Origin: Candidatus Aenigmatarchaeota archaeon
Lineage (GTDB): Archaea > Aenigmatarchaeota > Aenigmatarchaeia > QMZP01
Assembly (NCBI GenBank): GCA_043824495.1
Contig: JBDRSV010000008.1
Coordinates: 1 to 42,995 of the forward strand
DNA: 42,995 nucleotides
Direction: 5' to 3'
The position numbers and the translations under genes were made by a program. This document shows, piece after piece, positions 7,344 through 27,905 of this stretch; position 1 is the first letter of the stretch; the number at the start of each line of letters is the position of its first letter. The notes beneath the pieces were generated by a model. That model searched no databases. It was not told where the DNA came from and saw only the letters and a program-made list of their open reading frames with translations.

Positions 7344-7524
7344 GCCGAGGTGGCTGAATGGCTAAAGCGCCAGACTTGAATCCAGATATTATGATGATCC
7401 TTCCACTGTGGAAGAGGTTAAATGACTAGTTGGCTTGACTCGGATCCGGCGGGTTATGAAGAGTTACCCTGGAAATATATCTGGTGTCCGCAAGGACATG
7501 CAGGTTCAAATCCTGTCCTCGGCG
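7344..7524 (+). tRNA. tRNA-Ser(UGA) with a 98-nt intron at 37/38 (7381-7478)
   Basis: GCCGAGG/CCTCGGC acceptor, CCAGA/TCTGG anticodon stem, long variable arm TGTCC-GCAA-GGACA, TTCAAAT T-loop, G73; relaxed BHB with CCAG/CTGG outer helix. Confidence 0.92.
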
Positions 7525-27802: not shown

Positions 27803-27905
27803 GGGCCGGTAGTCTAGTGGTATGACGCTGCCCTTACATCTTGGATCGTGAATACGATCTTGGTTGGATAGGCAGAGGCCGCAGGTTCAAGTCCTGCTCG
27901 GCCCA
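27803..27905 (+). tRNA. tRNA-Val(UAC) with a 31-nt intron at 37/38 (27839-27869)
   Basis: GGGCCGG/TCGGCCC acceptor, CTGCC/GGCAG stem, relaxed BHB, GATCGT/ACGATC intron stem. Confidence 0.92.

Follow-up and report, generated by a model that had tools for sequence, protein, structure and literature searches.

A tRNA-Ser(UGA) intron of an aenigmatarchaeon as a probable box C/D guide RNA for its own tRNA and for the 16S decoding centre

The window analysed here is a stretch of 42,995 nucleotides (nt) from a Candidatus Aenigmatarchaeota archaeon, and it is one entire contig of the host metagenome-assembled genome (MAG), which comprises 1.01 Mb in 29 contigs and is 80% complete. A tRNA-Ser(UGA) gene lies at 7344-7524 on the forward strand. 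The gene was recognized by the Rfam tRNA model RF00005 at 47.1 bits, in an alignment that places about 100 nt of inserted sequence 3' of the anticodon; ARAGORN made no call for the gene at 7344-7524. A first-pass annotation of this DNA had reported a 98-nt intron at 7381-7478 in a tRNA with the anticodon UGA, and both the coordinates and the anticodon were borne out. The same annotation had proposed that the intron is a box C/D-like guide RNA, and this part of the proposal stands, with the intron conserved in relatives and two kink-turn motifs recognizable in it. In our view this intron is probably a methylation guide RNA of the box C/D type, having two kink-turn motifs and two guides, one for U39 of the tRNA that contains it and one for A1408 of 16S rRNA. 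The features of the gene are collected in Table 1.

Table 1. Features of the intron-bearing tRNA-Ser(UGA) gene, in window coordinates (rRNA positions in E. coli numbering)
Feature	Position	Strand	Description
tRNA-Ser(UGA) exon 1	7344-7380	+	Ends at A37; anticodon TGA at 7377-7379; from RF00005 and sequence
tRNA-Ser intron (whole putative guide RNA)	7381-7478	+	98 nt, at the canonical 37/38 site; from the Rfam insertion
Guide 1 (putative D guide), CCAGATAT	7382-7389	+	8-bp helix with 7477-7484; A7386 is the fifth nt upstream of D and pairs with U39 (T7480)
Box D, ATGA	7391-7394	+	NNGA in relatives; first base covaries with box C position 6
Hairpin (canonical stem of kink-turn 1)	7395-7420	+	Pairing from RNAfold; flush hairpin in homologues
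Bulge nt A7421 and box C, ATGACTA	7421-7428 (box C 7422-7428)	+	Conserved N-RUGA-NN directly 3' of the hairpin, exactly 12 nt before D'
12-nt spacer holding guide 2 (putative D' guide)	7429-7440	+	7430-7439 is TTGGCTTGAC, complementary to 16S 1405-1414; T7436 at N+5 opposite A1408
Box D', CGGA	7441-7444	+	Most relatives have the canonical CTGA; covariation of position 2 with position 5 of C'
D'-C' loop with conserved CGGCGG (7447-7452)	7445-7455	+	Only (C)GGCGG kept in homologues
Box C', ATGAAGA	7456-7462	+	Consensus RUG(A/U)-N-GA
Intron 3' tail	7463-7478	+	In the fold, 7469-7473 and 7381-7385 form the outer helix of the splicing motif; 7477-7478 in guide 1 target
tRNA-Ser exon 2	7479-7524	+	A38 at 7479; U39 at 7480, where 2'-O-methylation is predicted; guide 1 target includes exon nt 7479-7484

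Full-length matches to the pre-tRNA including its intron, with 69-83% identity, were found in 43 of 61 relative genomes. The homologous introns span 78-145 nt, and about 36 of them share the two kink-turn motifs. From 5' to 3', a leader of 9-11 nt (15 nt in one homologue) is followed by NNGA, a hairpin of 7-46 nt without sequence conservation, and N-RUGA-NN. A 12-nt spacer ending in TGGCTTGACT then leads to CNGA, a loop in which (C)GGCGG is usually present, RUG(A/U)-N-GA, and a variable tail of 3-54 nt. TGGCTTGACT is invariant across all homologues retrieved, which were found or filtered by this motif itself. The motif positions in the first-pass annotation (ATGATGA at 7391-7397, ATGA at 7422-7425 and 7456-7459, and TCCGGCGGG at 7445-7453) are correct. 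It had recommended a comparison with the introns of relatives, and in this comparison the boxes proved conserved once they were re-assigned; of its proposed guide, TCCGGCGGG, only (C)GGCGG is conserved. Separately, several tRNA-Ser genes of relatives (L014, L015, L020, L023, L025, L026, L027 and L029) carry, beyond the intron of the anticodon loop, additional insertions in the D-arm, variable arm or T-arm, which amounts to 2-3 introns per gene.

Archaeal box C/D small RNAs (sRNAs) follow the consensus RUGAUGA for box C and CUGA for box D, which form a kink-turn with tandem G.A pairs. In the first motif of the intron, kink-turn 1, box D precedes box C and a hairpin lies between them. This hairpin closes flush on NNGA at one side and on a 3-nt bulge before the GA of RUGA at the other in 25 of 27 homologues, the geometry expected of a kink-turn with a loop capping its canonical stem. 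GA is present on both strands (AUGA in D, AUGACUA in C). In box C, the base 3' of RUGA-N is paired to the base that opens NNGA, U-A being found in most homologues, C-G in one and A-U in four, as read by eye from the alignment rows; this is the place of the canonical G-C pair that joins boxes C and D. The segment 7391-7397 had previously been taken for a perfect box C. At this place relatives read NNGA (AUGA, AAGA, UUGA, CUGA, AGGA or GCGA) followed by the first bases of the hairpin, and the segment behaves as box D plus three stem bases.

The second motif, kink-loop 2, consists of boxes D' and C' and the loop between them. G6 of C' forms a Watson-Crick pair with C1 of D' in 35 of 36 homologues. 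Position 5 of C' is paired with position 2 of D' in 26 of 36, through G-C, C-G, A-U, U-A and G.U; only 50 of 10000 shuffles reach that level, in a test that is inflated by relatedness, and several pair types occur. Box C is separated from D' by 12 nt in 30 of 36 homologues, and four of the remaining values resemble a 3-nt register error of the parser. A C-to-D' spacing of 12 nt is the rule for archaeal C/D RNAs. The ATGA motifs at 7422 and 7456, which had been described as D-like boxes, are both the cores of C-type boxes, C and C' respectively. The boxes thus stand in the gene in the order D-C-D'-C' and not in the linear order C-D'-C'-D, which was found in relatives of families f5, f7, f9, f11, f12 and f21. 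Circularization is the normal fate of excised archaeal tRNA introns, and the excised intron is expected to circularize; only then would the usual cyclic order C-D'-C'-D arise.

Guide 1, the self-targeting guide in the leader, had been missed in the first-pass annotation. Its target consists of the last two intron bases and tRNA nt 38-43, the 3' strand of the anticodon stem. The register is constant, as the fifth nucleotide upstream of box D (N+5) lies opposite U39 in 30 of 30 homologues. Of 27 distinct guide/target combinations, at least 26 show pairing at each position from N+2 to N+8, and N+1 is mostly unpaired or in a G.U wobble, as is common among C/D guides. Double compensatory changes were found at two positions, from A-U to C-G opposite intron nt -1 and from A-U to G-C opposite exon nt 41, the latter in families whose anticodon stem is CCGGA/UCCGG. 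No intron segment complementary to tRNA 27-37 was found in the register of a guide for wobble nt 34. The idea that guide 2 is aimed at the anticodon arm of its own tRNA, as for C34 of tRNA-Trp, was rejected for lack of complementarity; the complement of guide 2 is missing from the tRNA.

The pairing of guide 1 crosses the 3' splice site and is mutually exclusive with the bulge-helix-bulge of the minimum-energy structure. Because the two cannot coexist, the pre-tRNA must refold before splicing. In the unspliced pre-tRNA, guide 1 would open the anticodon stem and offer U39 to fibrillarin. The incompatibility with the splicing motif would also suit an explanation in which the guide 1 helix is purely architectural or regulatory, closing the ribonucleoprotein (RNP) or delaying splicing, so that U39 receives no methyl group and the only catalytic job of the RNA is 16S A1408. 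The C'-to-D spacer, which is not the canonical 12 nt, fits such a role, as do the canonical relatives of other families, which lack guide 1 and have a second rRNA guide instead. Against it stands the fixed distance from the helix to box D, which keeps nt 39 at N+5 in every one of the Ser introns compared, and the same rule recurs in two unrelated introns of the host. The introns of tRNA(UGU) (Thr; G000:C9:3190-3300 (-)) and tRNA(GCA) (Cys; G000:C10:1240-1350 (-)) contain only a single kink-turn module of guide, NNGA, hairpin and RAUGA. Their guide sequences differ, each is matched to its own exon 2 with nt 39 at N+5, and there is no rRNA guide; they would be half-size self-guiding C/D RNAs. 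The intron of tRNA-Trp is moreover known to guide Um39 in a like manner (PMC4090602, PMC7714728). We regard a purely architectural helix as rather unlikely and favour methylation of U39 by guide 1. A further intron of the host may also be C/D-like, namely the ~50-nt intron of tRNA(UCU) at G000:C12:7365-7489 (-), which contains GUGA and CUGAUGA.

Guide 2 lies in the spacer upstream of D'. The earlier expectation of a 16S target holds for this guide; the site is 1405-1414, with A1408 at N+5, and not the 5' end of the molecule. All of the 19 parsable 16S genes of relatives carry GTCAAGCCA at the decoding centre, and the 16S of the same 19 relatives reads ...CACACUGCCC-GUCAAGCCA-..., which is equivalent to E. 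coli 1395-1413. Positions 2-10 upstream of D' pair with GUCAAGCCA at 1405-1413, and position 5 pairs with A1408. The helix with 16S has 9-10 contiguous Watson-Crick pairs over guide positions 2-11, with 10 base pairs (bp) in family f1. Shuffled guides equalled the observed run in 19-34 of 2000 trials when 16S and 23S were both searched. Guide position 11 and 16S 1414 change jointly within the order, being U-A in f1 and A-U in f2, f3 and f6, as seen in 11 of the 12 genomes with both sequences. Among the host and 47 family genomes, the perfect complement of guide 2 had no conserved match except the intron itself. Another tRNA or sRNA as the target was rejected, as the additional matches were unrelated coding-like DNA and two more tRNA-Ser introns. 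In the host, guide 2 would pair with 16S 1405-1414, which is predicted to read GUCAAGCCAA, and would offer A1408 of the decoding site for methylation.

The strongest outside support for this target comes from the literature on sR13 of Nanoarchaeum equitans. Am1408 (and Am1409) were demonstrated in this organism by matrix-assisted laser desorption/ionization mass spectrometry (MALDI-MS) and RiboMeth-seq, and Am1408 was attributed to sR13 by way of its D' guide, which complements 16S 1405-1415 and forms the same duplex (PMC5389701). N. acidilobi and Ignicoccus carry guides for the same A1408 site (PMC5389701; PMC4644070). The RNAs of N. equitans and N. acidilobi share with the window intron a D' guide for this segment, A1408 at N+5 and an origin in DPANN archaea. 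Two observations on the 16S genes themselves may be added. In the order of the host (L035-L054), 19 of 19 parsable 16S genes read CACACUGCCCGUCA, that is, U at E. coli 1400, and L235, L236 and L241, from other families of the class, read CACACCGCCCGUCA; elsewhere C is nearly universal at this position. The 16S genes of many relatives (L044, L045, L049, L050, L054 and others) extend over 1.7-3.4 kb, a length that implies several insertions or introns in each.

In the first-pass annotation the guide was placed elsewhere. Its model takes 7391-7397 as box C and 7456-7459 as a non-consensus box D, with TCCGGCGGG as a guide against the 16S 5' end (CCCGCCGGA) and methylation near position 20. The 9-nt complement on which this model was built is real, as the 16S of f1 relatives begins ...GATCCCGCCGGAGG, and CGGCGG is kept in most homologues, but the pairing is at chance level. 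Every 16S checked contains the hexamer CCGCCG once or twice, with the 530 loop always among the sites, and C[CT]GCCG occurs 2-3 times per 23S locus. The flanks that make up the 9-mer are not conserved and are particular to the window; GCGGCGG, a better fit to the 530 loop, is found in several relatives, and U replaces C in the 16S 5'-end site of some relatives. The segment sits in the D'-C' loop and in no guide position. Its distance to the next RUGA varies by 1-3 nt, so that N+5 would shift between relatives, and insertions in the loop always fall between D' and CGGCGG. The boxes of this model also fail to agree with the comparison, since 7456-7462 behaves as a box of C type (RUGA-N-GA), in covariation with the CNGA of 7441-7444, and 7391-7397 is not conserved as a box C. 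A guide to the 16S 5' end is very improbable in our judgement.

A more economical role for the conserved loop element may be found beside the guide 2 target. GGCGG is complementary to CUGCC at 16S 1399-1403, with one G.U pair and at a distance of one base from the guide 2 duplex, and it may give extra base-pairing to this segment. Extra base-pairing of 4-11 bp between D' and C' has been documented for eukaryotic small nucleolar RNAs (PMC3116282). In both cases a short conserved D'-C' segment is complementary to rRNA beside the methylation site; the effect was measured in the eukaryotic RNAs, whereas here it is suggested by a 5-nt match with one G.U pair. Such a match beside the target has a chance probability of ~6% by our estimate, and GGCGG is missing from the relatives with an anti-Shine-Dalgarno guide that are described below. 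Intramolecular partners of CGGCGG (GCCG of the 5' acceptor strand and the exon CGCC at 25-28) were rejected, as they give at most 4 bp and no covariation. A bipartite pocket of the H/ACA kind (UGGCUUGAC ... GGCGG) was also rejected, as there is no unpaired U between the target segments and no ACA.

The same contacts bear on the proposal that the RNA is mainly an assembly chaperone or checkpoint, which would hold 16S 1405-1414, and perhaps 1399-1403 through GGCGG, and keep helix 44 open until late maturation of the small subunit, with methylation as a secondary matter. Seistrup et al. proposed this role for sR13 of N. equitans (PMC5389701). The complementarity of GGCGG to the bases directly 5' of the guide 2 target would suit it, and five genomes of f21, f22 and f35 carry the same RNA inside the 16S gene, in the 3' strand of helix 44. 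The uneven occurrence of GGCGG and the chance probability of its match count against it, and the sequence does not separate such a role from methylation, being compatible with both. That chaperoning is the main role seems to us most improbable.

In a sample of 371 genomes of the phylum, TGGCTTGACT-NNGA was found in 147, mostly as CTGA and usually once per genome; a reversed control gave about 25 matches in total. Twenty loci from other families were fetched, of which 18 fall into three settings and two (L231 and L232) are unrelated sequence. In the first setting, a tRNA-Ser(UGA) intron has the canonical order C, 12 nt, D', loop, C', 12-13 nt, D, and its D guide matches, with one mismatch, the conserved 16S segment just 5' of UUGGCGGGGG. 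In the second, the canonical order in a tRNA-Ser intron is combined with a D guide with GGAGGUGA, which is complementary to the anti-Shine-Dalgarno end of 16S. GGAGGUGA is present in L233, L234, L236, L237 and L238 and missing from the window, and this second guide occurs in relatives of f19, f21, f22 and f35. In the third setting, five genomes from three families (L234, L235 and L236 of f21, L238 of f22 and L241 of f35) have an RNA of the second type within the 16S gene itself.

The insertion site in these 16S genes is between ...CUAAGUCG and UAAACAAGGUAGCC, within the 3' strand of helix 44. The embedded copies are located 100-130 nt downstream of their own target and are closed by a stem of ~12 bp. 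The 16S-embedded copy is probably an rRNA intron that guides the modification of its own host rRNA. A clean bulge-helix-bulge was not obtained for the 16S-embedded copies, which gave only a 4-bp helix with 3-nt bulges beside the 12-bp stem. Genomes of f21 have a single copy, in either tRNA-Ser or 16S. A loose pattern scan was also run on a species collection of 596 Gb; the matches listed were almost all bacterial, with one Bathyarchaeia contig (L095), and were treated as chance.

Judged from the canonical-order and 16S-embedded settings of the family, the window intron appears to be a derived member. It would have kept the A1408 guide and the C'/D' loop and lost the second rRNA guide, and it would have gained a 5' extension (guide 1, the new D box and the hairpin) that is aimed at the host tRNA. 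Going further, one may tentatively picture a single-copy guide family that moves between two kinds of endonuclease-spliced intron, those of tRNA-Ser(UGA) in most lineages and of 16S helix 44 in f21, f22 and f35, and that from within helix 44 would methylate A1408 on the opposite strand of this helix, and the anti-Shine-Dalgarno tail, before splicing, as an RNA-encoded checkpoint on the order of events at the decoding centre, with the family additionally rewired to the host tRNA in the window's order; this picture is possible but we hold it doubtful. If it is true, one RNP would mark both decoding partners.

To act as a guide, the intron would bind L7Ae, Nop5 and fibrillarin through kink-turn 1 (D 7391-7394, hairpin, C 7422-7428) and kink-loop 2 (D' 7441-7444, loop, C' 7456-7462), and it would accumulate or circularize after excision. 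Genes for fibrillarin (260 bits) and L7Ae (106 bits) are present in the host. Conserved anatomy, covariation, spacing and complementarity give good support to the structure of the RNA and to its two targets; the assembly of the RNP, the circularization and the two methylations are inferred.

Several observations weigh against the reading of the intron as a guide for both targets. Nop5 (Nop domain) was not found in the 80%-complete host MAG. It is present in 58 of the 61 genomes searched, the same genus included, and an assembly gap is therefore the likely reason for its absence. A covariance model did not find 16S in the host MAG either, with none of four universal 16S motifs present, and none was available from the genus of the host, so the guide 2 target was taken from other genera of the family. 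The boxes are degenerate with respect to the consensus: AUGA stands for D, CGGA for D', and AUGACUA, which lacks the second GA, for C. In place of the usual 12 nt, C' and D are 26 nt apart in the window, even in a circle, and 13-65 nt apart in relatives. For guide 2, the 9-10-nt match taken on its own has a p of ~0.01-0.07, and the covariation at position 11 is essentially one clade-level event. The pair between position 11 and 1414 is lost in the 16S-embedded copies of f21 and f35 (0 of 4 paired), and because of this the universal guide 2 duplex is 9 bp. The intron alone folds no better than shuffles (z = -1.0), a poor score that is expected for C/D RNAs.

Two further searches concern the RNA and its proteins. 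At a permissive threshold no Rfam family fits the intron; the best plus-strand match to a C/D family was sR11, with 12.3 bits vs a gathering score of 39. At L031 (G000:C25), two open reading frames at 201-902 (233 aa) and 912-1475 (187 aa) lie upstream of fibrillarin (1501-2151), in the usual place of Nop5. Their reading as a divergent or split Nop5 was dropped, as they gave no sequence match in Pfam, NCBIfam or PDB and relatives have an ordinary Nop5 elsewhere. On contigs G013:C47, G035:C21, G053:C1, G041:C5 and G050:C35 of relatives, only 2-10 kb separate Nop5 and the intron-bearing tRNA-Ser, which may be a conserved linkage of the guide RNA with a gene for an RNP protein.

The closest precedent for guide 1 is the intron of euryarchaeal pre-tRNA-Trp, a C/D sRNA that guides Cm34 and Um39 (PMC4090602, PMC7714728). 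The Haloferax volcanii system was described by Clouet d'Orval 2001 and Singh 2004, as cited in these two papers. The first-pass annotation had drawn this analogy, and it is apt. Both introns occupy the 37/38 site, the tRNA-Trp intron directs 2'-O-methylation of its own tRNA including U39, as the window intron is predicted to do, and in both the guide pairing competes with the splicing fold. The excised form of the tRNA-Trp intron is known to be circular, whereas circularization of the window intron is a prediction. The window intron differs in its host tRNA, Ser(UGA), in having no guide for nt 34, in its second guide to 16S and in its DPANN lineage; it also differs in the D-C-D'-C' order, the terminal stem closed as a hairpin and the degenerate boxes.

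For guide 2, sR13 pairs its A1408 guide with an anti-Shine-Dalgarno guide, as the relatives of f19, f21, f22 and f35 do. Its second guide is aimed at 16S A1534, whereas the second guide of the window intron would be aimed at the host tRNA. Unlike the window RNA, sR13 has the canonical box order and is not described as intron-encoded (PMC5389701; PMC4644070). N. equitans has permuted and circular C/D sRNAs (Randau 2012, PMC3491384), which likewise have D upstream of C in the gene, with the order restored only in the circle. Its tRNA-Met intron contains a C/D-like RNA that shares with the window intron a stable hairpin inside an intron-borne RNA; it differs in the host genes, in having no target assigned and in that no dual specificity for tRNA and rRNA was reported (PMC3491384).

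Randau (2012) stated that only tRNA-Trp introns had been recognized as carrying a functional C/D sRNA and added the N. equitans tRNA-Met candidate (PMC3491384), and Yoshihisa (2014) called tRNA-Trp a unique example. In a literature search, we found no description of a guide in a tRNA-Ser intron, of an intron guide RNA with one tRNA and one rRNA target, or of a C/D guide inside a 16S intron. The 16S-embedded copies would be a possibly undescribed kind of rRNA intron, with a guide against its own host molecule. Long tRNA introns of genome-reduced DPANN archaea have so far been hard to explain, and an intron guide would give them a job. Finders of sRNAs that expect the order C-D'-C'-D would miss the window RNA. 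If both methylations are real, the splicing of one tRNA would be tied to the maturation of the decoding site, and the model predicts Am1408 and Um39 in this uncultured lineage.

Elsewhere in the window, a third tRNA at 27803-27905 (+), which ARAGORN missed and Rfam recognized at 59 bits, is without the guide module of tRNA-Ser and has an intron of ~30 nt with a hairpin.

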